A stretch of DNA of 64,000 nt from Candidatus Zhuqueibacterota bacterium (GTDB lineage Bacteria; Zhuqueibacterota; Zhuqueibacteria; Oceanimicrobiales; Oceanimicrobiaceae). Within the stretch, counting starts at the first letter, position 1. Every line of letters starts with the position of its first letter. The notes under the pieces were generated by a model. That model was not told the DNA's origin. It searched no databases and saw only the letters and a program-made list of their open reading frames with translations. Shown here piece after piece: positions 37,105-57,848 of this stretch. Location: positions 102,430-166,429 of the forward strand of contig JAJDAD010000034.1 of assembly GCA_029262055.1 (NCBI GenBank). Reading direction: 5' to 3'. Position numbers and translations under genes: made by a program.

Positions 37105-37133
37105 TTGAAATTTAAGGCCTCGTTCTTTATAAT
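37105..37133 (+). promoter_or_regulatory. candidate sigma70 promoter TTGAAA-17-TATAAT upstream of the aconitase-family gene
   Basis: 5/6 -35, 17-nt spacer, perfect -10; 45 nt upstream of the ATG at 37179. Confidence 0.4.
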
Positions 37134-37178: not shown

Positions 37179-38453
37179 ATGGGCATGACATTAACTGAAA
37201 AAATTCTGGCAAATCGGGCAGGCATAAGCGAAGTCAAGCCAGGAGATTTGGTGATTTGCAAAATTGATATCGCGATGGCGACAGATATTTCGTCGCCCCT
37301 GACAATAAAGGTGTTTGAGGAAATGGGCGGCAGCCGGGTTTTCGACCGTGAGAAAGTACCGTTGGTGCACGACCACCTGGTACCCGCAAAGGACATCAAG
37401 TCCGCGGAATTTTCGAAGATGATGCGCAATTTTGCCGCGCAACAGGACATAGAGTACTACTACGAAGTAGGGCGCTCCGGGATTTCCCACCAGCTCTTGC
37501 CGGAACAAGGTTTGATTCATCCCGGTGATGTCGTGTTTGGCGCTGATTCCCACAGTACTACCTATGGCGGACTGGGGTGTTTTGCTACTGGCGTCGGCAG
37601 CACGGATATGGCGGCGGCATGGATTCTGGGAGAAAGTTGGCTGCGCGTGCCTGAGTCTATCAAAATCCGCTTCACCGGGAAACTGCAGGAATGGGTTTCC
37701 GCAAAAGATATGATGCTGCTTGTTTGCCGCGATTTGGGTTTGGAAGGCGGCACCTACCGCGCGCTGGAGTTCGGCGGACCAACCATCTCCGCCATGCCCA
37801 TGTATGACCGTTTTGTTTTTGCCAACATGACAATCGAGTGCGGCGGCAAGAACGGCGTCGTCATCCCGGATGACACGGTCCGGGAGTATCTGACCGGCCG
37901 GGCCAAAAAGCCCGCCGACGAGTGGGACTTTTTTGAGCCGGATGCGGATGCAACGTATTATCAGGAATTGAATTACGACATCAGTGATTTGCAGCCCATG
38001 GTGGCCAAACCAAATCTGCCGGGTAATGTCGTTTCCGTGTCAGAGGTTGACCCTGTGCCGGTCGACCAGGTTTACATCGGGTCGTGCACTAATGGTAAGA
38101 TCGAGGACCTGCGCATCGCAGCCAGTATACTCAAAGGTCAAAAAGTCAACAAGACAACTCGCATGGTTGTAGTCCCTGCAACCGAGCAAATATACCACGA
38201 AATGCTGACAGAAGGACTTGCCGAAGTCTTTCATGAAGCCGGCGCTTCTGTTGGGCCGCCGACCTGTGGCGCATGTTTCGGCGCGCACATGGGAGTGATG
38301 GCAAAGGATGAAGTCGGTGTCTTTACCACAAATCGGAATTTTGTAGGGCGCAACGGAGATACATCGGCACAGGTCTACCTGGTCAGCCCGGCCGTCGCGG
38401 CCGCAACCGCAATCCGTGGAGTCATCACCGACCCGCGCGACATTATGCATTAG
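37179..38453 (+). CDS. aconitase-family dehydratase large subunit (3-isopropylmalate dehydratase / homoaconitase LeuC-type, short archaeal-like form)
   Basis: 424 aa; aconitase catalytic-domain motifs incl. the Fe-S ligand region (GSCTNG, CGACFG); no LeuD/small subunit adjacent. Confidence 0.8.
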   Translation: MGMTLTEKILANRAGISEVKPGDLVICKIDIAMATDISSPLTIKVFEEMGGSRVFDREKVPLVHDHLVPAKDIKSAEFSKMMRNFAAQQDIEYYYEVGRSGISHQLLPEQGLIHPGDVVFGADSHSTTYGGLGCFATGVGSTDMAAAWILGESWLRVPESIKIRFTGKLQEWVSAKDMMLLVCRDLGLEGGTYRALEFGGPTISAMPMYDRFVFANMTIECGGKNGVVIPDDTVREYLTGRAKKPADEWDFFEPDADATYYQELNYDISDLQPMVAKPNLPGNVVSVSEVDPVPVDQVYIGSCTNGKIEDLRIAASILKGQKVNKTTRMVVVPATEQIYHEMLTEGLAEVFHEAGASVGPPTCGACFGAHMGVMAKDEVGVFTTNRNFVGRNGDTSAQVYLVSPAVAAATAIRGVITDPRDIMH

Positions 38454-38506
38454 CCTCGGACACAACAGGCGTATCCGGGGCAAAATGGAAAGGTTCTGGC
38501 ATTCAG

Positions 38507-39487
38507 TTGGCATCTCAGGAGGAAGTTAACGACCTCGTCATCATCGGCGCGGGTCCCAGTGGATTGGCCTGCGCCATAGCTGCTCATGAAAACGGCCTGC
38601 AATACGTGCTGTTGGACAAAGGCTGTCTGGTCAATGCTATTTTCAATTTTCCGCCGAATCTTATCTTCTTTTCAACTGCTGATTTACTGGAAATTGGGAG
38701 AGTACCCCTCATCATTTCCGACGAGAAACCCACTCGGACCGACTTGCTCAAGTATTACCGGTTGGTTAGCGAGCACTACGGGTTGAACATCAAGCTGTTC
38801 CACAATGTTTTGGCCGTCGCAGGGGACCATCCTCGCTTCGTCATCAATGTGGAAGACCGGCCGAACTTGGTGGCAAAGAATGTAGTGATTGCTACCGGAC
38901 AGTATGACCGGCCTAATCTGCTGGGAATTCCCGGGGAAGATCTCGACAAAGTGAGTCACTATTACACGGAGCCGCATAGTTTTTACAAAAAGAAGGTAGC
39001 CATTATCGGGGGGAAGAATTCTGCTGTTGAATTTGCGCTGGACCTTTATAAGAACAGCGTGGACGTGACTTTGATTCATCGGGGAGAGACCTTCGGGAAA
39101 TCGGTAAAATACTGGATCCGCCCGGATATTGAAAACCGCGTCAAGGAAGGAAAAATCAAAGCCATCTTCAACGCAACGGTGAAAGAGATTAGACCCGGGA
39201 GTATTGTTGTGGCGGACAGTGACGGAGAACAGGTGCTGGAAAACGATTTTGTGTTTGCCATGACGGGCTACCACCCGGACACGGATTTCCTGCAGCAGAT
39301 GGGAGTTGTGATTGGAGAAAGGCACACGCCTAAGCACGATCCGGAGACACTTGAAACTAATGTGCGCGGGATCTACGTTGCCGGCGTGGTCACCGTCGGA
39401 TCCGAAGGCAGCAAAGTCTTCATCGAAAACTCACGTGCGCATGGCAATCAAATCATAGGACATATACTAAATGGCCGCCAAGACTGA
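38507..39487 (+). CDS. YpdA-family FAD/NAD(P)-binding oxidoreductase (putative low-molecular-weight-thiol disulfide reductase-like)
   Basis: GAGPSGLACAIAA FAD motif; the block LVNAIFNFPPNLIFFSTADLLEIG closely matches the YpdA-family N-terminus as I remember it (no search run); second dinucleotide motif IIGGKNSAVEFA; 326 aa; TTG start. Confidence 0.65.
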   Translation: MASQEEVNDLVIIGAGPSGLACAIAAHENGLQYVLLDKGCLVNAIFNFPPNLIFFSTADLLEIGRVPLIISDEKPTRTDLLKYYRLVSEHYGLNIKLFHNVLAVAGDHPRFVINVEDRPNLVAKNVVIATGQYDRPNLLGIPGEDLDKVSHYYTEPHSFYKKKVAIIGGKNSAVEFALDLYKNSVDVTLIHRGETFGKSVKYWIRPDIENRVKEGKIKAIFNATVKEIRPGSIVVADSDGEQVLENDFVFAMTGYHPDTDFLQQMGVVIGERHTPKHDPETLETNVRGIYVAGVVTVGSEGSKVFIENSRAHGNQIIGHILNGRQD

Positions 39488-40871
39488 CAGTTTCGACCTC
39501 GCTGTAATTGGGGGTGGACCCGGTGGGTATGTAGCAGCAATCCGGGCTTCGCAATTGGGCATGAAGACGTGCGTGATCGAGAAGGACCGCCTTGGTGGCC
39601 TTTGCCTGAACTGGGGCTGTATCCCAAGCAAGGCCTTACTGCGCAGCGCCGAGGTGTATCACCTGGTGCAGCAGGCTGACGAGTACGGCATACAGGTTGG
39701 GGCAGTGAATTTCGATGCGAGCAAGATTATCAAACGCAGTAGAGCCACTGCGGATAAACTCAGCAAGGGCGTCTCGTTTCTTCTAAAGAAGAACAAGGTG
39801 ACGCACATCTCCGGACACGGCTCTCTTGCCGGTGATGGACAGATCACAGTCGTCAATGACGGCAAGACAGAGAGTATTCAGGCGCGCAATATTGTCGTGG
39901 CCACGGGTGGTTTCACGCGTTCTCTGCCGGGTGTCACCATCGACGGCAAGAAGATCATCTCCAGCAGAGAAGCGCTTGTTCTCGACAAGCTTCCGAAATC
40001 TATCATTATTATTGGGGGCGGCCCTATCGGCGTGGAGTTTGCGTATTTTTACAATGCCTTTGGGGTGAAATGCTCGATTGTAGAAATGCTGTCTCACATC
40101 CTGCCGTTTGAGGATAAAGAAATTGCTACCACTCTGCAGCGCAGTTTCAAGAAGAAAAAGATGGCGATCCTGACGGAGACCAGGGTCGAGAGCATCAAGA
40201 GCAGCGCCAAGGGCGTGACGGTTGACGTGTCAACCAAGTCCGGCAGCAAGACGCTGACCGGTGACCTGGCGCTGATGGCCGTTGGATTCGGTGGCATGGT
40301 CGAGAATGTTGGATTGGAGAAGGTCGGTGTAAAAATTGAGAAGACTTTCATCAAAGTAGACGAGAATTACCAAACCAACGTCCCCGGTGTCTTTGCCATC
40401 GGTGATGTGATCGGACCGCCGCTATTGGCGCATGTCGCCTCTGCCGAAGCCATTTTCATGGTGGAAAAGTTGGCAGGTCATGACGCCGTGCCGGTCGACT
40501 ATGCCAACATCCCCGGGTGTACCTATTGCCAGCCACAAGTAGCCAGCGTAGGCTTAACCGAACAGAAAGCCATCGAGGCCGGTTACAGCGTGAAAGTCGG
40601 CAAGTTCCCGTTCCAGGCGAACGGCAAATCTATCGCCATCGGCGAGACCGAAGGTATGGTAAAGTTGATTTTTGAGGAGAAATACGGGGAGTTGCTTGGT
40701 GCCCACATCATCGGCGTCGAAGCAACGGACATGATTGCAGAGCTCGGCCTTGCCAGATCTCTGGAAACGACTTACACCGAGGTTCTCAAAACCGTGCATG
40801 CGCATCCGACGCTTTCGGAAGCCGTCATGGAGGCTGCGGGCGACGCGTTGGGTGAGGCAATACACATTTAA
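39471..40871 (+). CDS. lpdA: dihydrolipoyl dehydrogenase (E3)
   Basis: GGGPGGYVAAIRASQLG FAD motif, redox-active disulfide GGLCLNWGCIPSK, C-terminal dimerisation domain with the HAHPTLSE His-Pro-Glu motif. Confidence 0.9.
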   Translation: MAAKTDSFDLAVIGGGPGGYVAAIRASQLGMKTCVIEKDRLGGLCLNWGCIPSKALLRSAEVYHLVQQADEYGIQVGAVNFDASKIIKRSRATADKLSKGVSFLLKKNKVTHISGHGSLAGDGQITVVNDGKTESIQARNIVVATGGFTRSLPGVTIDGKKIISSREALVLDKLPKSIIIIGGGPIGVEFAYFYNAFGVKCSIVEMLSHILPFEDKEIATTLQRSFKKKKMAILTETRVESIKSSAKGVTVDVSTKSGSKTLTGDLALMAVGFGGMVENVGLEKVGVKIEKTFIKVDENYQTNVPGVFAIGDVIGPPLLAHVASAEAIFMVEKLAGHDAVPVDYANIPGCTYCQPQVASVGLTEQKAIEAGYSVKVGKFPFQANGKSIAIGETEGMVKLIFEEKYGELLGAHIIGVEATDMIAELGLARSLETTYTEVLKTVHAHPTLSEAVMEAAGDALGEAIHI

Positions 40872-40928
40872 TCGTAGTGCGAGTTACTGTTCGGCCAAAC
40901 TCATTTTAGGGCTCAAAGGGCTGAGGAT

Positions 40929-41645
40929 TTGCAGAACGCTACGCTTTTGACAACCGGCTTGCTCGACTACCAGTCCGCCTGGGATTTGCAGAAATCGATC
41001 ATTGCGGACCGGATTGCCGGAAACGTTCCGGACACTCTGATTATGACGGAACATCCGCACACGTACACGCTCGGCAAGACCGGGCGGGAAGACCACCTGG
41101 TCGCGGATGAACTGAGCCTGCAGAGAAGAGGAATCACCGTATACCGTATTGACCGTGGCGGGGATATCACCTACCACGGGCCGGGGCAGATAGTGGGATA
41201 TCCGATTCTTGATTTGCACAATCATTTCCTTGATTTGCATAAATATTTGCGTGCGCTGGAGGAAGTGCTGATTTTGACCTTGTCCGATTATGGCATCGCG
41301 GCCGGCAGGGAAGAAGGCATGACAGGGGTCTGGATCGATGGCGCCAAGATAGCAGCAATCGGAGTAAAAGTAAGCCGTTGGGTTACCATGCACGGCTTCG
41401 CGTTCAACGTGAACACTGATTTAAGCTATTTTAATAATATTGTTCCGTGCGGCATAAGCGACAAGCCTGTGACTTCACTCGCTCAGCTTCTGGGCCGGGA
41501 GCCGGACCATCTGGAAGTAGAGGAAGTCGTGGCCAGCCGCTTTGCCGAGATTTTTCACTTAAAGTGGCTGACTGCCACAGAGATACCGACATCCATGAAA
41601 GCTGCAAGAGATTACCTCGTGGCCCCGCGAAGGGTGGTGGCCTGA
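40929..41645 (+). CDS. lipB: lipoyl(octanoyl) transferase
   Basis: RGGDITYHGPGQIVGYPIL and the catalytic-Lys region AAIGVKVSRWVTMHGFAFNV. Confidence 0.85.
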   Translation: MQNATLLTTGLLDYQSAWDLQKSIIADRIAGNVPDTLIMTEHPHTYTLGKTGREDHLVADELSLQRRGITVYRIDRGGDITYHGPGQIVGYPILDLHNHFLDLHKYLRALEEVLILTLSDYGIAAGREEGMTGVWIDGAKIAAIGVKVSRWVTMHGFAFNVNTDLSYFNNIVPCGISDKPVTSLAQLLGREPDHLEVEEVVASRFAEIFHLKWLTATEIPTSMKAARDYLVAPRRVVA

Positions 41646-41646
41646 G

Positions 41647-43194
41647 ATGGCGAGATTACACGAATATCAAGGCAAAGAAATCCTGCGGCAATTCAAAGTG
41701 AAGACGCCGATGGGCTTTCTTGCGTCGACGCCCGAGGAAGCCGCGCAGGCGGCCAAAAAAGTGGGTGGGCGCACAGTTGTGAAGGGGCAGGTTTGGCTTA
41801 CATCCCGGGCCGCGCTCGGTGCGATTCAATTCGCTGAAGATGAGACCGAAGCAAAAACACGGGCCGCGAGTATCCTCGGTCTGAAGTTGAATGATTTCGC
41901 AATAGAGCAGGTTCTGGTCGAAGAAGTCATCGACATCCAGCGCGAATTCTATGCCGGCATTATCATCGACGACTCTGCCAAGGCGCCGGTCATGATCTTT
42001 AGTTCCATCGGTGGTTCCGGCATTGAGGAGATCGCGGAGGAGCATCCGGATAAAGTTGCAAAGGCCACCATCGATATCGGAACGGGTCTGCGCGATTACC
42101 AGGCGCGCAACTTGATCCGGCGCACCGGCATCGGCGGCAAGCTTCAGATGCAGCTGGCCAATGTCCTGGTGAAGCTTTGGCAGGCCGCCCGCAAGTACGA
42201 AGCTCGTTCCGCAGAGATCAACCCGCTGGTCCTCACCGGCGCAGGTGATGTGCTGGCCGCGGATTGCCGGATTACGGTTGACGATTATGCTGTGTTCAGG
42301 CACCCGGATCTCGGCATAGAGATTGCCCGAGAGTTGAACCGTCCGCCTTCACGGCTGGACAAGATTGCCTACGACGTTGAAAAAGACGACTACCGCGGTA
42401 CCTTCTATTTTATCCAAATGGAACAAGGGTTTGAGGCCGGACAGGGCTTCGTTGGGTTCCACGGTGCGGGTGGTGGCGGCTCCATGATGTCCATGGACGC
42501 CTTGCACGCGCAAGGATTCAAGCTGGCCAACTTCACCGACACCAGCGGCAATCCGGCTGCATCGAAAGTCTACCGGGCGGCTCGCATCATTTTGGCACAA
42601 AAGAACATCGATGCTTATTTCGGCTCCGGCTCCGGAGTTGCGAGCCAGGAACAGTTCCACTCGGCGCGGGGCCTCGCAAAGGCGTTTATTGAGGAAAACC
42701 TGTCTATCCCCGCAGTCATCCGCCTGGGCGGCAACTCGGAAGACAAAGCCATCGATATTCTGGAAAAGTGTACCGAGCATCTGCCGGTGCCGGTGGAAGG
42801 CTACAAAAAAGATGACTCCGCTCACTTTTGCGCTGAGCGGCTGACGCAGCTGGTGAAGGAGTTTGACGGGTCGCAGGCTGCGGGACAAGGCTTCAGCAAA
42901 CCGGAATTTGATAAACCGTACCGGTTCGAGTCTATAACCGGCTCCATCACGTTTGACCACGGCGTGTGCGCTGACTGTGACCACAAGGCTTGTGTTGAGA
43001 GCTGTATTCCTGAGATTTTGCGTCTCGACGATGACGGTTTGCCGGTTCTGGCAATCAGCGCCGAGGAAGCGAAGGCAGGCAAATGCATCGAGTGTCTTGC
43101 CTGTGAGATGGAGTGCATTTATCATGGCAAGCGTGGCGCGTACATCGACTTGCCCATCGCAGGTTTGGACGAATACCTGGAGGAGGCGACCTGA
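41647..43194 (+). CDS. SucC-like ATP-grasp subunit (succinyl-CoA synthetase beta / citryl-CoA synthetase large-subunit family) with a C-terminal ferredoxin-like 2x[4Fe-4S]-motif extension
   Basis: N-terminus MARLHEYQGKEIL matches the SucC/AclA start. ~390-aa ATP-grasp + CoA-ligase body, then ~125 extra aa with CADCDHKACVESCIP and CIECLACEMECIY cysteine clusters. Confidence 0.6.
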   Translation: MARLHEYQGKEILRQFKVKTPMGFLASTPEEAAQAAKKVGGRTVVKGQVWLTSRAALGAIQFAEDETEAKTRAASILGLKLNDFAIEQVLVEEVIDIQREFYAGIIIDDSAKAPVMIFSSIGGSGIEEIAEEHPDKVAKATIDIGTGLRDYQARNLIRRTGIGGKLQMQLANVLVKLWQAARKYEARSAEINPLVLTGAGDVLAADCRITVDDYAVFRHPDLGIEIARELNRPPSRLDKIAYDVEKDDYRGTFYFIQMEQGFEAGQGFVGFHGAGGGGSMMSMDALHAQGFKLANFTDTSGNPAASKVYRAARIILAQKNIDAYFGSGSGVASQEQFHSARGLAKAFIEENLSIPAVIRLGGNSEDKAIDILEKCTEHLPVPVEGYKKDDSAHFCAERLTQLVKEFDGSQAAGQGFSKPEFDKPYRFESITGSITFDHGVCADCDHKACVESCIPEILRLDDDGLPVLAISAEEAKAGKCIECLACEMECIYHGKRGAYIDLPIAGLDEYLEEAT

Positions 43195-44099
43195 TGTCAA
43201 TCCTAATCGACGATGATACCAGAGTGCTCGTGCAGGGCATCACGGGCCGCGAAGGATACACACGCGCCAAGCTCATGATGGAATATGGCACCAAAGTGGT
43301 CGCAGGGGTCACACCGGGAAAGGGCAACCAGACCGTCCTGGACGTGCCGGTCTATGACACGGTAGAGCAGGCCGTGGAAGCCGCACCGGAACTGAACACT
43401 TCCGTGATATTTGTTCCGGCGCCACTGGTTAAGAATGCTGCTCTTGAGGCCATCGATGCCGGTATCAAACTGCTGGTCATCGTGCCGGACCGCGTGCCTA
43501 TTTACGATGTTCTCGAAATTGCGAGTGCAGCCCGGCTGAATGGCGCCAAATTTGTCGGCCCGAACACTTTGGGTTTGCTATCCGTCGGCAAAGGTGTGTT
43601 GGGCATGATTGGCGGCAGGGCTGAGACCGCCCGCGCCTGGTTCAAGCCGGGCGACGTTGGCGTTACCTCGCGCAGCGGCGGCATTACGTCCTCTATCTCT
43701 TACTACTTAAGCAAAAGTGGAGTCGGTCTCAGTTCCATTGTCCACGTCGGGGGTGACGCCATCGTCGGGACGCCACATCCCGAAGTGATCAGGCTCTTTC
43801 AGGAGGATGACGCCACCAGGGCGGTGGTCATGTTCGGCGAGATCGGCACCACACAGGAAGAACAAGTGGCGGACCTGATCGAGCAAGGCATCTTCACCAA
43901 ACCGCTCATTGCGTTCATCGGCGGTAAGGCCGCGAAGTCCGGCACCAGGTTTTCACATGCCGGCGCCATCGTGGAAGGCAACCGCGGCACACACGAGAGC
44001 AAAGTGAAGCGACTGAAAGAGGTGGGTGCACATATTGTTGACAATTTTGATGATATTCCAACAGTAACACAAGAGGTTTTAAGGAAGTTGAAAACATGA
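43194..44099 (+). CDS. SucD-like CoA-binding subunit (succinyl-CoA synthetase alpha / citryl-CoA synthetase small-subunit family)
   Basis: Start ATG overlaps the upstream stop (TGATG) behind a GGAGGAGG RBS. CoA-binding motif VLVQGITGREG; phospho-His loop region GxxGxIxxSGG (SRSGGITSSISYY). The track's 43113 start is an upstream in-frame artefact. Confidence 0.65.
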   Translation: MSILIDDDTRVLVQGITGREGYTRAKLMMEYGTKVVAGVTPGKGNQTVLDVPVYDTVEQAVEAAPELNTSVIFVPAPLVKNAALEAIDAGIKLLVIVPDRVPIYDVLEIASAARLNGAKFVGPNTLGLLSVGKGVLGMIGGRAETARAWFKPGDVGVTSRSGGITSSISYYLSKSGVGLSSIVHVGGDAIVGTPHPEVIRLFQEDDATRAVVMFGEIGTTQEEQVADLIEQGIFTKPLIAFIGGKAAKSGTRFSHAGAIVEGNRGTHESKVKRLKEVGAHIVDNFDDIPTVTQEVLRKLKT

Positions 44100-44890
44100 C
44101 TGACAAGAGTTTGCATTGGAAAACTGCCGTGTCCAAGATTGGACCGAACGAGGTTCGGTTGCGCGGTTACAGGATAGATGAACTGATGGGACGTACGACT
44201 TTTGGCCAGGCCGTCTACCTCGCGCTGAAAGGTGAGTTGCCAACAGAGAATGCCGGTAGGATCATCGACGCGATTCTGGTCTCCTCCATTGACCACGGTG
44301 CGACGCCGCCGTCGGCGCTGGCCGCCATGACCGTGGCATCAACAGGTTCGCCGCTCAATGCGGCTGTCGCCAGCGGCATCCTGGCAATCTCAAAGTACCA
44401 CGGCGGCGCCATTGAGGATTGCATGGGGGCCTTGCTGCAAGTACAGGACAAGATCAAAGCACGACAGTTGGAAATAGGCGTAGCCGCAGAAGAGCTGGTG
44501 GGCGAATATAAGCAGATTCGCCGCAGAATATCGGGTTTCGGCCACCGGTTGCACACGAAAGATCCCCGCACCGAGCGTCTGTTCACATTAGCTGATGAGC
44601 TCAATATAGGGACGCACTACCTCGAGATCGCGCAGGCGATCGAAAGTGAGCTGGAAAAACAATCAGGTAAGAAGCTACCCATCAACGTTGACGGCGCCAT
44701 CGCTGCGGTGCTCTGTGAGTTAGAGTTTTCTCCAAAGCTGGCCAACGCATTTTTCATGATTGCGCGCCTGCCGGGCCTGGTGGCGCATGTGTACGAAGAG
44801 CAAAACCGGCACCGGCCCATGCGTGCGATTCACCCAAAAGACCATGAATACGACGGACCTGAAGACAGGAGGATGCAAGATAATGGATAA
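44096..44890 (+). CDS. short citrate-synthase-family protein, citryl-CoA lyase-like
   Basis: 264 aa (citrate synthase is ~430). Citrate-synthase motifs YHGGAIED and GFGHRLHTKDPR. Overlaps the upstream gene by 4 nt. Confidence 0.6.
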   Translation: MTDKSLHWKTAVSKIGPNEVRLRGYRIDELMGRTTFGQAVYLALKGELPTENAGRIIDAILVSSIDHGATPPSALAAMTVASTGSPLNAAVASGILAISKYHGGAIEDCMGALLQVQDKIKARQLEIGVAAEELVGEYKQIRRRISGFGHRLHTKDPRTERLFTLADELNIGTHYLEIAQAIESELEKQSGKKLPINVDGAIAAVLCELEFSPKLANAFFMIARLPGLVAHVYEEQNRHRPMRAIHPKDHEYDGPEDRRMQDNG

Positions 44891-45422
44891 AAAAACTTTG
44901 CTGGAAGTCATTCCCGAGTTTAATCTGATTAAAGATGAAGAGCTGCGGGAAAACACAATTGCGATCTGGGAGGAGGCGACCAATTACCGCAATTGGACGG
45001 TGGAAGAGCTGCTGAATATTCCGTTTACTCTACTGGCGGATAATGTCAAAATCACCTACTTAGAGCATGTTCGCACTGTTTGTAAAATGTGCGTTGCCTG
45101 CGACGACGTTCTCACCGAAGCCTACCATGAGCGCAAGACACCGGTTAACCGCGACTACCTTGTGGCAGGCGCAATGCTGGCGGATGTCGGCAAGCTTTAT
45201 GAATACGACAAAGAGGACGGGAAGGTCGTGAAGAGTAAGCACGGCAAGTATCTGCGCCACCCGTTCAGTGGCGTTGGCTTGTGTTTTAAATACAACATCC
45301 CTGAAGAAGTCATGCACATTGTCGCAGTACATTCAAAGGAGGGTGACCATTTCCCCAGGTCACCCGAAGCAATCATCTTACACCACGCAGACTTTATCGA
45401 CTTCGATCTGGTCCGCATATAA
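44883..45422 (+). CDS. HD-domain phosphohydrolase
   Basis: ATG at 44883 (MDKKTLLEV) overlaps the previous stop by 8 nt; H...HD...H...D metal-binding pattern (AYHERK...LADVGK...HSKEGDH...HHADFID); 179 aa. The track start at 44760 is an upstream in-frame extension. Confidence 0.6.
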   Translation: MDKKTLLEVIPEFNLIKDEELRENTIAIWEEATNYRNWTVEELLNIPFTLLADNVKITYLEHVRTVCKMCVACDDVLTEAYHERKTPVNRDYLVAGAMLADVGKLYEYDKEDGKVVKSKHGKYLRHPFSGVGLCFKYNIPEEVMHIVAVHSKEGDHFPRSPEAIILHHADFIDFDLVRI

Positions 45423-45463
45423 GTAAACAAGGCACTTTAACGACAAAGATAGGATAACATACG

Positions 45464-46582
45464 ATGGCAAAATACAAAATCGCGTGGTTGCCCGGTGACG
45501 GGGTTGGTGTCGATGTAATGAATGCGGCCCGGGTCGTTTTGGACGCACTGAAACTCGACGCTGATTATGAGCACGGAGACATCGGATGGGAATTCTGGAA
45601 AACGGAAGGAAACCCGCTACCGGATAGAACCATCGACTTGCTGAAACGGACTGATGCTTGTCTTTTCGGCGCTATCACGTCGCTGCCCAAGGAAGAGGCA
45701 CAGTCGCAACTGGTCCCGGAGCTGCAGTGTAAAGGCTTGACTTACTCAAGTCCAATCGTGCGCTTGCGGCAGGAATTCAACCTGCACACGAACTTGCGTC
45801 CGTGCAAGGCGTTTGCCGGTAACCCGCTTAACTACAAGGATGACATTGACCTGGTCGTCTTTCGTGAGAACACTGAAGACATGTATGTCGGCATCGAATT
45901 CCATCCCGTCCCGGACGAGGTCGTGGATGTTCTGGTTAAGCATCAGCCGAAGATGAAGCGCTTCGCTGCCACGCCCACAGATGAAATGGCGATCACCTTG
46001 CGCATCAATACCATCAAAGCTTCAGAATCGATCGTGAGGCAGGCTTTTGAGTACGCGAAAAAACACGGCTACAAGACTGTCACTATCGTTGAAAAGCCCA
46101 ATGTACTACGTGAGACTGGCGGTCTTGTCCTGCGCACCGCACGTAAGGTTGCCGCCAAATACCCTGGCATCGATCTATGGGAAACCAACATAGACGCCAT
46201 GTGCATGTGGTTGGTCAAGAACCCACAGGATTACGGTGTACTGGTCGCCACCAACATGTTCGGCGATATCGTGTCGGACCTTTGTGCACAACTGGTGGGT
46301 GGCCTCGGCTTCGCTTCCAGTGGCAACATCGGTGATAATTACGCAGTTTTTGAGCCCACGCATGGGTCCGCGCCGAAGTATGCCGGACAAAACAAAGTGA
46401 ACCCAATGGCCATGCTGTTGACCGTCAAGTTGATGTTGGACTGGCTTGGAGAGCTGGACATGGGTGGCAGGCTGGAAGAGGCCATCGCCCACGTGATCCA
46501 GGCAGGAGAGGTGAAGACTTACGACATGGGCGGCAATTCGTCCACGCTTGATGTTGCAAAAGAAGTCAGCCGAAATCTCTAA
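45464..46582 (+). CDS. isocitrate/isopropylmalate dehydrogenase-family beta-decarboxylating dehydrogenase
   Basis: N-terminal KIAWLPGDGVGVDV, the metal/substrate motif region (NMFGDIVSDLCAQLVGGLGFASSGNIG); 372 aa. Substrate cannot be assigned from sequence alone. Confidence 0.8.
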   Translation: MAKYKIAWLPGDGVGVDVMNAARVVLDALKLDADYEHGDIGWEFWKTEGNPLPDRTIDLLKRTDACLFGAITSLPKEEAQSQLVPELQCKGLTYSSPIVRLRQEFNLHTNLRPCKAFAGNPLNYKDDIDLVVFRENTEDMYVGIEFHPVPDEVVDVLVKHQPKMKRFAATPTDEMAITLRINTIKASESIVRQAFEYAKKHGYKTVTIVEKPNVLRETGGLVLRTARKVAAKYPGIDLWETNIDAMCMWLVKNPQDYGVLVATNMFGDIVSDLCAQLVGGLGFASSGNIGDNYAVFEPTHGSAPKYAGQNKVNPMAMLLTVKLMLDWLGELDMGGRLEEAIAHVIQAGEVKTYDMGGNSSTLDVAKEVSRNL

Positions 46583-46651
46583 TATCGGCAACGGACTCTT
46601 CCTGATTTGGTAGATGTCCACAGTCCCCTAAAACGTAATCGTAGGAGCATC

Positions 46652-48025
46652 ATGGATTCCATTGCAAGGCAAATAGCACGCTTCTCATTAGGCCTGAAAT
46701 ATGATGATCTGCCGGCAGAAGTCGTGCACGAAGTCAAACGCTATCTTTATGATTCAATTGGTTGTGCTTATGGCGGTTACTCAACGCATGATGTCGGAAT
46801 TATCAAGAAAATCTATGCGGACATGGGCGGGAAGGCCGAGGCCACCGTCATTGGCTCGTCAGACAAGATGCCCGCGTACAACGCGACATTCCTGAACAGC
46901 CTAATGGTGCGTGCACTTGACTTTAATGACATCTATTGGAAAGAGGATCCAAGCCATCCGAGTGACATCATTCCTGTCGCCCTCGCGGTAGGAGAGCGGG
47001 AGGGCAAATCCGCGAAGGAGATTATCACCGCCATCGTACTCGCTTATGAGTTCGAGATGCGCCTGTGCGAGTTCGCCAAGCCGGGCGTGCGCGAACGCAA
47101 GTGGCACCACGCCACCCTGACGCAATTTGTCTCGCCCATCGTGGCCGGCTATTTGATGGACCTGACCGAAGACCAGATGGTACACGCAATCGGCATTTCC
47201 GGCTCCCACAATCTCACACTGGGTGCGGTGACCGCCGGTCAGTTGACCATGATGAAAAATACGGTTGACCCAATGGCGAGCCAGAGCGGTGTCATGGCCG
47301 CCCTGATGGCAAGGGAAGGGTTCACGGGTACGGAACAGATTTTTGAGGGGAAAGAAGGACTGATGCAGACGCTCGGTCCGGCGTGGGATGAAAACGAGCT
47401 GGTGGGCAATCTCGGCGACGCGTACAAGATTCTTGATTGTTCGATGAAGGCATTCCCGTGTGAAGCCTTAACCCACTCGCACATCTCAGCCACGCTCAAA
47501 GTGATCACTGAAAACGACATCCATCCGGATGACATCGAGGAGATCACGGTAACAACCATTGCGCGCGCGGTCGACATTCTTTTTGATGCTGAAAAATACC
47601 GGCCCACCTCACGCGAAACGGCAGACCACAGTTTGCCCTATTGTATTGCGGCTGCCGTGGTAGATCGCAAAATTACGACAGACCAGTTCAGTGATGAGAG
47701 AATCCCTGACCCTCAGATCCAGAGTGTTCTGGCAAAAATCAAGGGGGAGGCCAGTGAGGAATTTGAGAAAATGTTCCCTGCCAAACAACCCTCGAAGGTT
47801 CGTGTCAGGCTGAAAAGCGGCGCGGAGCATTCGGCACAGTTGGACTACCCGAAAGGTGACCCACGCGAGCCCATGACTGAAGAGGATTTGGACAACAAAT
47901 TCAGAAGCCTGAGCTCTGGTCTCCTGAGTGCCGAAGGCTGTGATCGCGTAAAGTCAGCCATCTGGAACCTGGAAGATTTCCAGGATCTCGGGCGCTTCAT
48001 GGCAGTGCTGAAAATCGATAAATAA
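46652..48025 (+). CDS. MmgE/PrpD-family protein (2-methylcitrate dehydratase-like)
   Basis: Family N-terminus MDSIARQIARFSLGLKYDDLPAEVVHEVKRYLYDSIGCAYGG; likely ATG at 46652 after AGGAG; ~457 aa. Confidence 0.8.
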   Translation: MDSIARQIARFSLGLKYDDLPAEVVHEVKRYLYDSIGCAYGGYSTHDVGIIKKIYADMGGKAEATVIGSSDKMPAYNATFLNSLMVRALDFNDIYWKEDPSHPSDIIPVALAVGEREGKSAKEIITAIVLAYEFEMRLCEFAKPGVRERKWHHATLTQFVSPIVAGYLMDLTEDQMVHAIGISGSHNLTLGAVTAGQLTMMKNTVDPMASQSGVMAALMAREGFTGTEQIFEGKEGLMQTLGPAWDENELVGNLGDAYKILDCSMKAFPCEALTHSHISATLKVITENDIHPDDIEEITVTTIARAVDILFDAEKYRPTSRETADHSLPYCIAAAVVDRKITTDQFSDERIPDPQIQSVLAKIKGEASEEFEKMFPAKQPSKVRVRLKSGAEHSAQLDYPKGDPREPMTEEDLDNKFRSLSSGLLSAEGCDRVKSAIWNLEDFQDLGRFMAVLKIDK

Positions 48026-48060: not shown

Positions 48061-48089
48061 TTGACTTATAGCATCGCAGTCTTTATATT
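48061..48089 (+). promoter_or_regulatory. candidate sigma70 promoter TTGACT-17-TATATT upstream of nuoA
   Basis: Good -35/-10 hexamers with 17-nt spacing, 39 nt upstream of the nuoA ATG. Confidence 0.4.
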
Positions 48090-48127: not shown

Positions 48128-48481
48128 ATGAATGAACTGATTGCAGTCTTAATAATGTTTCTGGGCACTGGCGCTCTGGTTGCGGTGATGCTTTCCCTCT
48201 CAAACTGGCTCGGGCCGAAGAAGATGAACCCGGTCAAAAGCGAGACCTTTGAGTGCGGCAATATCCCTATCAGCGTAACCTCCAACCGTTTTCCGGTTAA
48301 GTTCTACACCGTCGCCATTCTGTTCGTCTTGTTTGACATAGAAATCGTCTTTCTGTTCCCCTGGTCGGTTGTTTTTCAAAGCCTGGGCATGCAGGCCTTT
48401 GTTTCCATGGTGTTGTTCATCGGGGTCCTGGTTCTCGGCCTTGCTTACGCCTGGAGGAGGGGGGCGTTGCAATGGGACTGA
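48128..48481 (+). CDS. nuoA: NADH-quinone oxidoreductase subunit A
   Basis: 117 aa, 3 TM helices, conserved FDIEIVFLFPW. Confidence 0.9.
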   Translation: MNELIAVLIMFLGTGALVAVMLSLSNWLGPKKMNPVKSETFECGNIPISVTSNRFPVKFYTVAILFVLFDIEIVFLFPWSVVFQSLGMQAFVSMVLFIGVLVLGLAYAWRRGALQWD

Positions 48482-48948
48482 GAGGACTGTTCGGCGGCGA
48501 CAACGTGGTTACCACCAAGCTGGATGACGCCATTGGCTGGGCCAGGAAATTTTCCCTTTTTCCCTATCCATTTGTTACAGCCTGTTGCGGCATGGAGTAT
48601 ATGTCCGCCTCGTCTTCACACTACGATCTCGACAGGCTCGGCGCGGCTTTTCCCCGGTTTTCGCCACGTCAGGCCGACATGCTCATGTGCGTCGGGACTG
48701 TGAGCCAGAAGATTGCGCCGGTCTTGCGTCGTGTTTATGACCAAATGTGCGAGCCTAAATACGTGGTTGCTTTCGGGGTTTGCACCTGTACCGGTGGTTT
48801 TTACAATGATTATTCGACTGTGATGGGCATTGATACCATTCTGCCTGTCGACGTCTATATTCCAGGCTGTCCTCCCCGGCCGGAAACTGTCATTCAGGGT
48901 TTGATGCTGCTTCAGGACAAAATTCAAAAACAGAAGCAGGAATACTAA
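48472..48948 (+). CDS. nuoB: NADH-quinone oxidoreductase subunit B
   Basis: N2-cluster ligands: CCGMEYM, GVCTCTGGFY, GCPPRPE. Confidence 0.9.
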   Translation: MGLRGLFGGDNVVTTKLDDAIGWARKFSLFPYPFVTACCGMEYMSASSSHYDLDRLGAAFPRFSPRQADMLMCVGTVSQKIAPVLRRVYDQMCEPKYVVAFGVCTCTGGFYNDYSTVMGIDTILPVDVYIPGCPPRPETVIQGLMLLQDKIQKQKQEY

Positions 48949-48955
48949 GTTCAGC

Positions 48956-50821
48956 ATGATGCACATTTTCCGGGATTTGCAGAAAGAGCTTGGGGATTTC
49001 GTCTACGATGCGTACACCCATCATGGTGATGCGGTTGCGATCATAGACAGAAAGGCCATTCATGAGGTCTGTTCCTACCTGCGCCAGCAAAAAAACTTCG
49101 ATTTTCTGTTCGATTTGACCTGCGTCGACTACCCCGACCGCACTCCCAGATTTGAAGTGGTTTACCAGCTCCACAGCTTTGCCACCGGTGAACGTTTAAG
49201 ATTGAAAGTCCCGGTTGACGAGCGCGATCCGCAAGTCATTTCTGTGTCTGATATTTGGGATATTGCCAACTGGTACGAGCGCGAAGTGTGGGACATGTTT
49301 GGTGTCCGGTTCAAAGGGCACCCGGACTTGCGACGCTTGCTCATGTACGACGAGTTCAAGGGCCACCCTTTGCGGAAAGACTATCCCATTACCAGGCGCC
49401 AGCCGCTGGTCGGTCCGGATAAGACAAACAATAGCGTCATCAGCCCGACCCTGGAGCAGAGCAGGCAGGCGATGGATGAGTACGTCACCGAGGAAAACGG
49501 CCTCAAAGTCAAACACATGTTTCTGAATGTGGGGCCGTCGCATCCGGCAATGCACGGCGTTGTCAGAATTGTCGTGGAGCTCGATGGTGAAAAAGTCGTG
49601 GGCTCTGACCTCGGCATCGGCTATTTGCATCGCTCGTTTGAAAAGCACTCGGAGAGCATTTACTACAACGGCGTCTTTCCTTATACCGACAGGCTTAACT
49701 ACGTTTCACCCCTGATCAATAATGTTGGATACGCCCTTGCGGTCGAAAAGCTGCTCGGCATCGAGACCACGGAACGCTGCAAGTTCATTCGCATGATCAT
49801 GTGTGAAATATCGCGCATCGCCGACCACTTGACCTGCATCGGCGCTATGGCCATGGAGTTGGGGGCGATGACGGCGTTTCTCTATTTCATGGAAGCGCGC
49901 GAGGCCATGTACCAGCTCATCGAAGAGGTTACCGGAGCGCGTGTAACCATCTCTTATGTCAGGGTCGGCGGCGTTAAAAGTGAGTTTCCGGATAATTTTG
50001 AAAAGCGCGTTCGCCTGCAACTGAAGAGCGTGGAAGAGCAAATAGACCAGGTCCACAGATTGCTGACGCGCAACCGTATTTTCGTGGACCGGGTCCGCGA
50101 TGTTGCCGTAATTTCGTTGGACGACGCGATTTCATATGGATTTACGGGACCGATGCTGCGTGCGTGCGGCAGTGACTACGATGTGCGCAAGCAATTCTCC
50201 TACTGCAATTATGACCAAATAGACTTTGAAGTACCGGTCGGAGAAAACGGTGACGTTTTTGACCGCTATCTTGTCCGAATGGAAGAGATAGAGCAAAGCA
50301 TCCGCATCATCGACCAGGCTTTCGAAAAGATGCCCGCCGGCGCCATTATGGTGGATTTCGAAGGTCAGGAAATTCCGGCTGATAAAATGGCCGATCTGGG
50401 CAAATTCGGCCAGACCAGCGGTTTGCTCAACCAGGTCGCCGTCACTGATCCGACTTTACTGGGGAGCAACGCCGCCTTTCACTCGCAAGTGTACACGGCA
50501 GACAAGCGTGTCGCTTTGCCTGCAAAAGAAAAGACATACGGCAGCATCGAAGGCCTGATAAATCACTTTATGCTGATTATGGAAGGCTACGGCATTCGTC
50601 CACCTGGTGGCGAAGCGTACGTGCCGGTTGAGGGTGCAAACGGCGAGTTGGGGTTTTATGTGGTCAGCGATGGCAGCGACAAAGCCTATCGGGTGCGCTG
50701 CCGGCCGCCGTGCTTTTCGTTTGTTGCCGGTTTTAGCAAGTTGATTCAAGGTGGGCAACTGGCGGATATCGTGCCCGCTTTCGGCTCGATAAATATGATT
50801 GCTGGAGAGCTAGACCGATGA
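48956..50821 (+). CDS. nuoCD: NADH-quinone oxidoreductase fused subunits C/D
   Basis: NuoC (30 kDa) region ...WYEREVWDMFGVRFKGHPDLRRLL... continuous with the NuoD (49 kDa) region NVGPSHPAMHGVVRIVVELDGEKV; 621 aa; no hydrogenase-type CxxC pairs. Confidence 0.9.
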   Translation: MMHIFRDLQKELGDFVYDAYTHHGDAVAIIDRKAIHEVCSYLRQQKNFDFLFDLTCVDYPDRTPRFEVVYQLHSFATGERLRLKVPVDERDPQVISVSDIWDIANWYEREVWDMFGVRFKGHPDLRRLLMYDEFKGHPLRKDYPITRRQPLVGPDKTNNSVISPTLEQSRQAMDEYVTEENGLKVKHMFLNVGPSHPAMHGVVRIVVELDGEKVVGSDLGIGYLHRSFEKHSESIYYNGVFPYTDRLNYVSPLINNVGYALAVEKLLGIETTERCKFIRMIMCEISRIADHLTCIGAMAMELGAMTAFLYFMEAREAMYQLIEEVTGARVTISYVRVGGVKSEFPDNFEKRVRLQLKSVEEQIDQVHRLLTRNRIFVDRVRDVAVISLDDAISYGFTGPMLRACGSDYDVRKQFSYCNYDQIDFEVPVGENGDVFDRYLVRMEEIEQSIRIIDQAFEKMPAGAIMVDFEGQEIPADKMADLGKFGQTSGLLNQVAVTDPTLLGSNAAFHSQVYTADKRVALPAKEKTYGSIEGLINHFMLIMEGYGIRPPGGEAYVPVEGANGELGFYVVSDGSDKAYRVRCRPPCFSFVAGFSKLIQGGQLADIVPAFGSINMIAGELDR

Positions 50822-51294
50822 GCAAAGTAGCGTTTTCTCAGGAATCGCTGTCGGAATTTGAGCGAATTGTCGCGCAATATCCCGAGCGTCGGGCAGCCAT
50901 GCTCCCGACATTGTATCTCGCGGAGAAAGAATTTGGACACATTTCCCCCGAAGTCGAGGTCTACGTCGGTGAGTTGTTGCAAGTGCCGGCTATCAAAGTG
51001 CGGGAGGTGCTGACCTTTTACACGCTTTTTGCCAGCAAGCCACGCGGTAAACTGCACTTTCAGGTTTGCCGGGGGATTTCGTGTGATTTGCGCGGCTGCA
51101 CCAAGATCATAGAGCATTTACAAGAAAAGCTGAATTTGAATTCGGAAGAAACGAGCGCCGACTTGGCGTACACTTTGTCAGAAGTCGAATGCCTGGGTGC
51201 CTGCGAGACTGCACCGATGATGCAGTTGAACGACGATTATCACGGCGATCTGACGACAGAAACGGTAGATCTTATTCTGGACGAAAAGAAGTAG
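50818..51294 (+). CDS. nuoE: NADH-quinone oxidoreductase subunit E (24 kDa, [2Fe-2S])
   Basis: Cys ligands CRGISCDLRGC ... ECLGACETAP. Confidence 0.9.
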   Translation: MSKVAFSQESLSEFERIVAQYPERRAAMLPTLYLAEKEFGHISPEVEVYVGELLQVPAIKVREVLTFYTLFASKPRGKLHFQVCRGISCDLRGCTKIIEHLQEKLNLNSEETSADLAYTLSEVECLGACETAPMMQLNDDYHGDLTTETVDLILDEKK

Positions 51295-51301
51295 CCCGAA
51301 T

Positions 51302-52597: not shown

Positions 52598-52606
52598 GGA
52601 AGCTCA

Positions 52607-55339: not shown

Positions 55340-55938
55340 TCAACGTTCACGACAAACACAAACCCCTGACTTTCATAGAGAAGACCTATCTGCCGGCAAT
55401 CGTCTCCGGTGTATTGCTGACTTCCAGGCATTTCTTTGTAAATCTGACACGCCATATCCTCAGGGCATTTGGCGTCAAACTGAAAAACATGGCGGCGGTC
55501 ACGATTCAATACCCTGAGTTTTTGCGGCCGCTGTTTCCAAGACTACGCACCATGCACCGCCTTACACGGCGCGAAGATGGTACGCCCAGGTGCGTTGCCT
55601 GCATGATGTGTGAAACCGTTTGTCCCGCCAAGTGCATTTACATTATTGCCGATGAAAAGCTGGAAAACCCGCAGATCGAAAAAATGCCCAGGAGCTTCGA
55701 TATCGACCTCGGCCTTTGCGTCTTTTGTGGCTATTGTGTCGAAGCCTGTCCGGAAGATGCCATCCGCATGGACACGGGAATCCTTGAGATTTCAAATTAC
55801 ACGCGGAACGGCATGATTCTGGACTTGGAGACAATGCTTAGCCTTGAACCTATGAGTAGCCGGTACGTCCAGTACGACCGTGGCGGCGAGGTAGTGTCTG
55901 CTGACTATATTGACGAAAGACACCGATCGGATGCTTAG
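55336..55938 (+). CDS. nuoI: NADH-quinone oxidoreductase subunit I (2x[4Fe-4S])
   Basis: CVACMMCETVCPAKCI and CVFCGYCVEACPEDAI. Confidence 0.9.
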   Translation: MINVHDKHKPLTFIEKTYLPAIVSGVLLTSRHFFVNLTRHILRAFGVKLKNMAAVTIQYPEFLRPLFPRLRTMHRLTRREDGTPRCVACMMCETVCPAKCIYIIADEKLENPQIEKMPRSFDIDLGLCVFCGYCVEACPEDAIRMDTGILEISNYTRNGMILDLETMLSLEPMSSRYVQYDRGGEVVSADYIDERHRSDA

Positions 55939-55947
55939 AGTCCTGCC

Positions 55948-55987
55948 GGTATGATTTTGCTCATGATCAGGCCCATACCTTGTTTTT
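55948..55987 (+). terminator. weak terminator-like hairpin between nuoI and the second nuo set
   Basis: ggtatg-(20 nt)-catacc followed by TTGTTTTT, 10 nt after the nuoI stop. Confidence 0.3.
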
Positions 55988-56051
55988 AAGAAAAAAACAG
56001 CTATATTAATTTCATTAAGTCTTACAGGATTTCTAACGAGGGAAGGACCAG

Positions 56052-57794: not shown

Positions 57795-57848
57795 AAATCG
57801 ATTGCAGCAATAGCGCACAAATTTACTACGAAACCGAAGGAACCCAGA

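Follow-up and report, generated by a model that had tools for sequence, protein, structure and literature searches.

The 64-kb window analysed here, a stretch of 64,000 nucleotides from a contig of a Candidatus Zhuqueibacterota bacterium, contains at positions 41647–44890 of the + strand three overlapping genes that encode a SucC-like protein of 515 amino acids (aa), a SucD-like protein of 301 aa and a citrate-synthase-fold protein of 264 aa. We propose, with a probability of roughly 0.6, that these genes encode an iron–sulfur (Fe–S)-bearing citryl-coenzyme A (citryl-CoA) synthetase (CCS) and a citryl-CoA lyase (CCL), which would together interconvert citrate and acetyl-CoA plus oxaloacetate in an oxidative or heterotrophic setting. 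The large subunit of the putative synthetase ends in a ferredoxin-like domain that occurs elsewhere as a separate gene. In the open-access literature we found no description of an Fe–S module on any succinyl-CoA synthetase (SCS), CCS or ATP-citrate lyase (ACL)-type enzyme, of a split three-gene form with a stand-alone ferredoxin-like gene, of CCS/CCL in Chloroflexota, FCB-group or KSB1 lineages, or of a citramalyl-CoA synthetase.

The open reading frame (ORF) list of the window and an independent gene call on the identical public contig give the same three genes, and the homology E-values are too extreme for the trio to be a chance pattern. The gene for the large (beta) subunit (41647–43194, +) meets that for the small (alpha) subunit (43194–44099, +) at a junction that reads ...ACCTGATGTCA, where one base is common to TGA and ATG. 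The alpha gene in turn meets the lyase gene (44096–44890, +) at ...ACATGACTG, in an ATGA overlap. This coupling reaches past the trio in both directions: the stop codon of the upstream LipB gene lies at 41645, 1 nucleotide (nt) 5′ of the beta-subunit ATG, and a downstream HD-domain gene starts at 44883 and overlaps the lyase gene by 8 nt. All of these belong to a ten-gene string on the + strand (37179–48025) with LeuC-like, YpdA-like, LpdA and LipB genes, the trio, and genes for the HD protein, an Iso_dh-family dehydrogenase and a PrpD-like protein. LpdA, LipB and the trio are apparently transcribed together. The original prediction had described a trio with TGATG and ATGA coupling, YHGGA and GFGHRLH motifs in the third protein, and malic enzyme, aconitase-family, Iso_dh-family, PrpD, LpdA, LipB and ADP-forming acetyl-CoA synthetase (ACS) genes as neighbours. 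Its coordinates, sizes and overlaps agree with both gene calls, the two motifs are present in the lyase protein, and all the named neighbours were found.

The best PDB match of the 264-aa protein is the CCL of Hydrogenobacter thermophilus (6hxp_A; 216 bits, 45.7% identity), whereas citrate synthases score at most 73 bits. The Pfam model Citrate_synt matches with an E-value of 5.3e-41 through the C-terminal half of the profile alone (profile positions 165–355), and the N-terminal ~40% of citrate synthase is absent. The truncated protein retains the catalytic His/His/Asp residues and the oxaloacetate-binding His and Arg residues of citrate synthase: H67, H102, H150, R151, R158, D199, R224 and R243 are invariant in 47/47 orthologues, a list based on the E. 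coli GltA criteria that PMC13147460 quotes. With the NCBIfam model named “citryl-CoA lyase” (NF004869), which does not discriminate the substrate, the protein scores 273 bits (cut-off 212).

The beta subunit of the putative citryl-CoA synthetase comprises an ATP-grasp domain (residues 3–195), a substrate-binding domain of the CcsA/ACL type (~231–400), a linker and the ferredoxin-like tail (~424–515). Its AlphaFold2 model has a mean predicted local distance difference test (pLDDT) score of 90.8. Pfam ATP-grasp_2 matches with an E-value of 7.7e-52, and Citrate_bind (PF16114) matches the C-terminal domain marginally, at 27.7 bits for a cut-off of 26.8; Ligase_CoA (PF00549) gave no Pfam match in this subunit. 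When the C-terminal domain is searched alone, its best PDB match is CcsA (6hxq_B), with which it has in common the motifs RPPxx...DD(Y/H)RG, GGGGS and GNP(P/A)AxK(V/M)Y. The substrate-domain motifs of SucC, namely NGAGLAM, GGGA and NIFGGI, are replaced by AGGGGSMM, SGNPAASKVY and GSGSGVASQEQ, and a 60-column core of the domain is 42% identical to CcsA compared with 30–35% to four SucCs. Among curated models, the subunit reaches 252.8 with NCBIfam SucC (NF001913), below the equivalog cut-off of 370. A CcsA fragment taken from the PDB alignment and searched against a 5.8-billion-protein collection yielded no candidate for a full-length CcsA.

The alpha subunit, 301 aa from its ATG, combines a CoA-binding Rossmann domain with a phosphohistidine loop, RFSHAGAIV, whose His255 is encoded at 43956–43958. 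The loop is kept as RFSHAGAI(V/I) in 49/49 alpha orthologues. Pfam CoA_binding (1.2e-25), Ligase_CoA and Succ_CoA_lig all match this subunit, and with NCBIfam SucD (NF004230) it scores 290.9, again below the equivalog cut-off (336).

The ferredoxin-like tail of the beta subunit (42916–43191, +) resembles a 2x[4Fe-4S]-type domain and consists of a beta-hairpin and two Cys motifs. Motif 1, CxxCxxxxCxxxCP (CADCDHKACVESCIP; 42967–43005, +), contains C441, C444, C449 and C453 and has one atypical spacing, and motif 2, CxxCxxCxxxC (CIECLACEMEC; 43084–43116, +), contains C480, C483, C486 and C490 and is canonical for a bacterial-type 2x[4Fe-4S] ferredoxin. The eight Cys residues of the tail, together with C395, are 100% kept in the 120 best homologues (61–78% identical), and the eight-Cys pattern recurs in 71/71 orthologues from genome loci. 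Among 65 tail relatives carrying both motifs, 57 have eight Cys and eight have seven; in two further relatives, P0241 and P0166, the domain is kept and most Cys are lost. The AlphaFold model of the tail (pLDDT 96.9) shows a ferredoxin fold. Family models did not reach their thresholds on the tail: Pfam Fer4_7 gave 16.9 bits for a cut-off of 27, and in NCBIfam there were only faint matches to ArrB and OorD. Judged by these features, the ATP-grasp CoA ligase here carries, as its tail, a module of the dicluster-ferredoxin type, which probably binds two [4Fe-4S] clusters. A Cys-rich tail of this kind, left unexplained by known families, had been part of the original prediction; it is real, with all four Cys of each motif conserved, and the lack of conservation among homologues that had been named as counterevidence was not found.

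To follow the locus across genomes, one genome per GTDB species was scanned with the family-specific peptides DTSGNP[PA]AS and SGSGVASQE, which returned at least 581 confirmed relative stretches, mainly from Chloroflexota, Calditrichota, KSB1, Ignavibacteria and Marinimicrobia. Lineages, taken from record titles, and gene contexts were counted in the best 80 of these at least 581 loci, all of which are full length and reach the tail. They comprise ~54 Chloroflexota (mostly Anaerolineae, and including Thermoflexus and Aggregatilinea), six Calditrichota, four Ignavibacteria, three Marinimicrobia, three “uncultured Deferribacteres” metagenome-assembled genomes (MAGs), two Cytophagia, two Acidobacteriota, two unclassified “bacterium” MAGs, and one each from KSB1, Gemmatimonadota, Zixibacteria and Deltaproteobacteria. 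By these titles the carriers are mostly heterotrophic groups; Anaerolineae, Calditrichota, Ignavibacteria and Marinimicrobia are generally known as heterotrophs. Among cultured groups, the titles suggest relatives in Caldithrix, Aggregatilinea and Thermoflexus. The closest among the matches listed, a KSB1 MAG with 78% identity, keeps the entire ten-gene order.

Linkage within the trio is strong in loci with enough downstream sequence for the gene in question to be counted. A SucD-like gene follows beta in 71/72 and the CCL gene lies downstream in 56/59, with record titles that include KSB1, Calditrichota, Bacteroidota, Gemmatimonadota, Marinimicrobia, Acidobacteriota, Zixibacteria and Chloroflexota. 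Downstream genes for the HD protein (40/54), a LeuC-like protein (30/47), the Iso_dh-family dehydrogenase (26/40) and a PrpD-like protein (13/39) were also recorded, and the LeuC-like gene lies upstream instead in loci of the KSB1/Calditrichota type. In the window, as in the related loci that were examined, the lyase has a gene of its own and is not fused to alpha.

A search with the tail alone against 1.84 billion representative proteins produced just 130 matches. These included SucC-like proteins of ~500–540 aa that carry the tail and complete proteins of 83–106 aa that consist of the hairpin and both Cys motifs. In 5/5 cases looked up, the stand-alone ferredoxin-like gene (83–98 aa) lies directly 3′ of a tail-less SucC-like gene (407–420 aa), and a SucD-like gene adjoins the pair in all five. 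The five cases represent four kinds of gene context. One (L092/L093; L092:4817–11412) contains glutamate mutase, methylaspartate ammonia-lyase, a class-I fumarase-like enzyme and a citrate-synthase (CS)-like protein of 309 aa, and another (L088–L091) contains two methylaspartate ammonia-lyase genes and a CitE-like lyase. In L098/L099 the neighbours are GntR, TctCBA, a CitE-like lyase, an acetolactate-synthase-like thiamine pyrophosphate (TPP) enzyme and a Zn-dependent alcohol dehydrogenase, and in L086 they form a four-subunit 2-oxoacid:ferredoxin oxidoreductase. L097, on a short contig, shows beta, ferredoxin-like and alpha genes. The split betas of L097 and L098 share the invariant loop motifs FHGxGGGGSMM and S-GSGVASQEQ with the beta subunit of the window; those of the other three differ.

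The occurrence of both fused and split forms shows that the ferredoxin-like module is an integral partner of the beta subunit. In three of the four stand-alone contexts, the thiokinase is accompanied by an acyl-CoA lyase that has one of two folds. At the level of genes and their order, this pattern shows the module to be a genuine third component across the whole predicted thiokinase clade, whose usual partners would be acyl-CoA lyases with two unrelated folds. The split forms in the methylaspartate/glutamate-mutase clusters suggest an undescribed ATP-dependent cleavage route of the citramalate type that would replace citramalate lyase, and citramalyl-CoA is the expected substrate in the glutamate-mutase cluster. 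The CS-like protein of that cluster differs from the lyase of the window at its key motifs (IDYG, GFGHP, NADS), with one oxaloacetate/citrate-binding His changed to Tyr and adjoining positions also changed.

On our preferred interpretation, the trio would constitute a split system of the ACL type, in which beta and alpha form an ADP-forming citryl-CoA synthetase (citrate + CoA + ATP <-> (3S)-citryl-CoA + ADP + Pi) and the lyase catalyzes the second step (citryl-CoA <-> acetyl-CoA + oxaloacetate). Citrate is the best-supported candidate substrate, for three reasons. First, some enzyme must supply citryl-CoA to a CCL-type lyase or take it up from it, and the obligately linked thiokinase is the sole candidate. 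Second, the lyase keeps every oxaloacetate-binding residue, unlike the CS-like protein of the glutamate-mutase cluster. Third, the conserved neighbours include an aconitase-family hydro-lyase and a dehydrogenase that is nearest to NAD-isocitrate dehydrogenases.

The reaction energies in the cleavage direction are -5.9 ± 3.9 kJ/mol for CCS and -2.1 ± 3.9 kJ/mol for CCL (PMC13147460, Table 1). Both steps thus lie near equilibrium, and sequence alone therefore cannot fix the direction. We favor an amphibolic or oxidative role because the trio is strung together with LpdA and LipB and flanked by complex I, the E2 component of a 2-oxoacid dehydrogenase, and LipA. The predicted role in this organism is heterotrophic, oxidative or amphibolic, and ATP-yielding formation of citrate is its most likely version. 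In this direction, acetyl-CoA would enter the branch from citrate to 2-oxoglutarate, with its thioester energy conserved as ATP, and the aconitase-family, PrpD-like and Iso_dh-family neighbours would carry out that branch. Heterotrophic catabolism, such as that of glutamate or citrate, might instead use the cleavage direction, and autotrophic CO2 fixation is less likely.

Since the citrate-cleaving reaction is not a redox reaction, the module probably has a role other than catalysis. It would most likely be a structural or docking element, or a regulatory one that senses redox state or O2. Such a role fits better than electron transfer because the module always accompanies beta and is kept in Cys-poor relatives. 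Its position at the C-terminus of beta argues in the same direction, a site which we take to be the topological counterpart of the linker that joins the beta-like part to the alpha-like part in fused ACLY.

Several findings weigh against the assignment of the trio as CCS/CCL. As a whole, the beta subunit is nearer to SCS than to CcsA, both by score (Thermus SCS beta 227 bits versus CcsA 123) and in Foldseek alignments (35% identity versus 27%), and the best PDB match of alpha is an archaeal SCS alpha subunit (294 bits, versus 173 for CcsB). NF004869 is passed as well by the CS-like protein from the glutamate-mutase cluster (248 bits for the same cut-off of 212), so that the name of this model does not fix the substrate; we rejected the match as proof of it, since a protein from a methylaspartate-pathway cluster passes too. 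Finally, the Iso_dh-family enzyme has Ile at the position where Asn115 of isocitrate dehydrogenase (IDH) binds the gamma-carboxylate, and the aconitase-family enzymes of the loci are of the LeuC/HacA type, so the downstream pathway may not lead from citrate to 2-oxoglutarate. With respect to the original prediction, the proposed CCS plus CCL architecture is upheld by the lyase, whose best relative is the H. thermophilus enzyme, and by the scores of both synthetase subunits below the SucC and SucD cut-offs. The identity of the synthetase, which had been argued by analogy, holds for the CcsA-like substrate-binding domain and not for beta and alpha as whole proteins, which are closer to SucC/SucD. 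The CcsA-like character thus appears to be confined to the substrate-binding domain of the large subunit. The putative synthetase is one that would work like CCS, yet is neither an orthologue of the Aquificae enzyme nor a member of the SucCD equivalog families.

A wider reading, which we regard as possible and hold only tentatively, is that the ferredoxin-like module defines an unrecognised clade of three-component Fe–S hydroxy-acid thiokinases with lyase partners of two folds, and that the fused form is gated by redox state or O2. Under it, the fused enzyme would act as an ATP-yielding “citrate synthase” or in regulated cleavage in many uncultured bacteria of the Chloroflexota and the FCB group, and citrate, citramalate or malate would be the likely substrates of the clade. 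If this were true, the fused enzyme would stand in for, or work beside, classical citrate synthase, and the annotations “succinyl-CoA synthetase” and “citrate synthase”, as well as calls on the presence or absence of the reductive tricarboxylic acid (TCA) cycle, would be systematically wrong in hundreds of genomes.

We consider it rather unlikely that the thiokinase and lyase act on another hydroxy acid, such as 2-methylcitrate, citramalate or homocitrate, with a product that feeds the LeuC-, PrpD- and Iso_dh-like enzymes of a chain-elongation or methylcitrate-type pathway. The split members of the clade in methylaspartate/glutamate-mutase clusters and beside CitE-like lyases, where citrate is an unlikely substrate, speak for this alternative, as do the LeuC/HacA-type and PrpD-like neighbours and the hydrophobic residue at the IDH Asn115 position. 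The “TCA cycle locus” of Caldithrix abyssi also contains homologues of lysine enzymes of the alpha-aminoadipate pathway (PMC5317091). Against it stands the invariance of the oxaloacetate/citrate-binding residues in 47/47 lyases, compared with the loss of one in the lyase of the glutamate-mutase cluster, and the presence of a PrpD-like gene in only 13 of the 39 loci counted. For 2-methylcitrate this conservation would be compatible, since its formation still uses oxaloacetate.

That the window encodes an ordinary SCS with an odd tail, accompanied by a minimal citrate synthase in a plain TCA operon where no citryl-CoA is exchanged, appears improbable. Whole-protein similarity is indeed highest to SCS subunits, the best NCBIfam matches of beta and alpha are the SucC and SucD models, public records name relatives of beta “succinyl-CoA synthetase subunit beta”, and the neighbours are TCA-like enzymes. 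However, both curated cut-offs are missed, the SucC motifs of the substrate domain have given way to CcsA-like ones, the lyase gene follows beta and alpha in nearly all loci counted (56/59), and three of the four stand-alone contexts couple a thiokinase of this type with an acyl-CoA lyase. The notion of a minimal citrate synthase is further contradicted by the missing N-terminal ~40% and by the proximity of the 264-aa protein to the characterised lyase.

Citrate cleavage in the reductive TCA cycle of an autotroph, with the ferredoxin tail tied to a low-potential ferredoxin pool, is very unlikely. The architecture equals that of the Aquificae CCS/CCL, the reaction is reversible (PMC13147460), and a trio of SucCD-like and CS-like proteins in Planctomycetes has been proposed to cleave citrate (PMC5459899). 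However, the 64-kb window contains no 2-oxoglutarate:ferredoxin oxidoreductase, pyruvate:ferredoxin oxidoreductase or fumarate reductase (weak evidence, as it concerns the window only), the trio apparently shares a transcript with LpdA and LipB and is flanked by complex I, E2 and LipA, and most carriers belong to Anaerolineae, Calditrichota, Ignavibacteria and Marinimicrobia. For the same reasons, the framing of the trio in the original prediction as part of an Aquificae-type autotrophic pathway is not supported. It is highly improbable that the module is a working electron carrier from a 2-oxoacid:ferredoxin oxidoreductase docked on the thiokinase, with acyl-CoA and electrons handed over in one complex: such an oxidoreductase adjoins the split form at one locus (L086), but it is a conserved neighbour in none of the best 80 of the at least 581 fused-type loci, neither the thiokinase nor the lyase reaction has a redox step, and the Cys-poor domains of P0241 and P0166 fit a structural role better.

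We compared the trio with characterised systems. The H. thermophilus enzymes (CCS, EC 6.2.1.18, PDB 6hxq; CCL, EC 4.1.3.34, PDB 6hxp) likewise consist of a SucC-like, a SucD-like and a truncated citrate-synthase-fold lyase protein, the window lyase shares all active-site residues with H. thermophilus CCL, and the C-terminal domain of beta carries CcsA-specific motifs. In contrast, CcsA is only 429 aa long, so that it has no room for a ferredoxin-like domain of ~90 aa, CcsA/CcsB are not the closest relatives of beta and alpha as whole proteins, which lie nearer to SCS, and the genes of the window overlap in one string in a heterotrophic and oxidative context, not an autotrophic one. With ACL (Chlorobium AclB/AclA and human ACLY), the trio is expected to share its overall chemistry, and beta matches Citrate_bind; the motifs GGG(A/G)S and S-G-x-P of beta presumably resemble those of ACLY. 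Unlike the window system, ACL has no Fe–S domain and its lyase module is fused to the alpha part, and sequence similarity to the window beta is low (79 bits to AclB, with 16–20% identity in structure alignments to ACL). SucC/SucD have in common with the window subunits the fold, subunit organisation, ATP-grasp domain and phosphohistidine loop, along with the highest whole-protein similarity; they are set apart by the equivalog cut-offs that the window subunits miss, the replaced substrate-domain motifs, the lack of a Ligase_CoA match in beta, the ferredoxin-like tail and the obligate link to a lyase gene.

Malate thiokinase (MtkAB) with malyl-CoA lyase, and systems with CitE-type citryl-/citramalyl-CoA lyases, also couple a SucCD-like thiokinase to an acyl-CoA lyase, and split members of the window clade pair with CitE-like lyases. 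The window beta, however, reaches just 190 bits with the NCBIfam MtkA model (cut-off 604), and we know of no ferredoxin-like subunit in MtkAB. The ACL of Desulfobacter postgatei reportedly runs oxidatively as an ATP-yielding citrate synthase, as Moller, Schauder, Fuchs and Thauer are said to have described in 1987. It offers a precedent, in an energy-limited anaerobe, for the direction that we judge most likely here, although it is a conventional ACL without an Fe–S module and not a split CCS/CCL. For the SucCD-like and CS-like trio of Planctomycetes OTU-14, proposed as citrate-cleaving by Thiel et al. 2017, the accessible text of that paper (PMC5459899) describes a tree position between the Aquificae CCS/CCL and type II ACL and mentions no Fe–S domain.

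As far as the open-access literature shows, the predicted enzyme would be the first in the SucCD/ACL superfamily of NDP-forming acyl-CoA synthetases to carry an Fe–S module. Cleavage or synthesis of citrate sets the direction of the TCA cycle and serves as a marker for calling autotrophy in MAGs. At least several hundred species-level genomes contain the variant, from lineages that are abundant and mostly uncultured, and its usual name, where one is given, is succinyl-CoA synthetase. It would add an intermediate to the evolutionary series SCS -> CCS/CCL -> ACL, and it provides the directly testable hypothesis of a tie between the flux of central carbon at citrate and Fe–S or redox status. The split relatives hint in addition at an undescribed ATP-dependent citramalate-type cleavage in clusters for glutamate fermentation.

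The genes downstream of the trio begin with that for the HD/HDIG-domain protein (179 aa, 44883–45422, +; Pfam HD, NCBIfam HDIG 27.5 bits). In the window protein and most orthologues, Ala replaces the His of the “HD” dyad; some Anaerolineae have His at this position, and others have Arg or Cys. The PDB contains no meaningful sequence relative of the protein, the sole match being ribosomal protein S7 (E 0.007). The next gene encodes the Iso_dh-family beta-decarboxylating dehydrogenase (372 aa, 45464–46582, +), a candidate isocitrate dehydrogenase of a distinct subfamily. It falls under all NCBIfam equivalog cut-offs; in the PDB it is nearest to the NAD-IDHs 6ltf/6m3s (236 bits), followed by Thermus homoisocitrate dehydrogenase (211). 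A ~20-aa insertion, SxPKEEA..EL.PEL.GKG, is conserved, as is the segment Y.SPIV.LRQ, which places Ser at the position of E. coli IDH Ser113 and Ile at that of Asn115. The MmgE/PrpD-family protein (457 aa, 46652–48025, +; Pfam MmgE_PrpD_N and MmgE_PrpD_C) is remote from characterised 2-methylcitrate dehydratases, with 101 bits for an NCBIfam PrpD cut-off of 950.

The ten-gene string opens with the large subunit of an aconitase/isopropylmalate-isomerase-family enzyme of the LeuC/HacA type (424 aa, 37179–38453, +; NF001614 585 bits), beside which no small-subunit gene was found in the window. In many Anaerolineae loci (L023, L032, L037, L065 and others), two pairs of large and small subunits lie 3′ of the trio. 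The LeuD-like small subunits are of two types, with the loop motifs PGKYTY(S/T) and H(N/G)xYLxxTD, neither of which, we presume, equals the YLRT/YLVY of characterised homoaconitase or isopropylmalate isomerase. The specificity of these small subunits and of the Iso_dh-family enzyme was also sought from determinant residues, which fitted no characterised class and were not used.

The remaining genes ahead of the trio encode a YpdA-like flavoprotein disulfide reductase (38507–39487, +; TIGR04018 432 bits) of the putative bacillithiol-disulfide reductase family, dihydrolipoyl dehydrogenase LpdA (39471–40871, +; TIGR01350 568 bits) and lipoyl(octanoyl) transferase LipB (40929–41645, +; NF010925 213 bits). 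The YpdA-like gene overlaps the start of the LpdA gene by 17 nt. The order YpdA-like/LpdA/LipB/trio is also found in a KSB1 locus (L006), a Calditrichaceae locus (L007) and an unclassified “bacterium” MAG (L012), and a Cytophagia locus (L011) has the matching LpdA/LipB/trio order without the YpdA-like gene. In ~8 Anaerolineae loci (L035, L074, L075, L077 and others), sequence inspection revealed EtfA/EtfB-, HdrA- and CCG-domain (HdrB/D)-looking genes upstream of the trio. The two best sigma-70-like matches of the region flank the ten-gene string: one promoter-like site ahead of it (37105–37133, +) has 11/12 consensus positions and another 3′ of it (48061–48089) has 10/12, and both are matches of a consensus scan only.

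Among the more distant genes, those of malic enzyme (3131–4747) and ADP-forming ACS (21838–23961) are the confirmed neighbours named above. A complex I set (nuoA, B, fused C-D, E, F, G, H, I) followed by a second partial set occupies 48128–59099 (+); the second set consists of nuoB-like (56052–56600), nuoC-like (56597–57229), 4Fe-4S protein (57222–57794) and nuoD-like (57849–59099) genes, all on the + strand. The segment 59190–63892 (+) encodes an HdrD-like protein (667 aa; two CCG domains and a 4Fe-4S dicluster), then the E2 of a 2-oxoacid dehydrogenase with two lipoyl domains, and then LipA; since LipA lies apart from LipB, lipoate-related genes occur at two places in the window. At the other end of the window (11–2008, +), an ORF that starts at base 11 encodes an unusual 665-aa fusion in which a Rieske [2Fe-2S] domain is N-terminal to a full thiamine diphosphate enzyme (TPP_enzyme_N, M and C).

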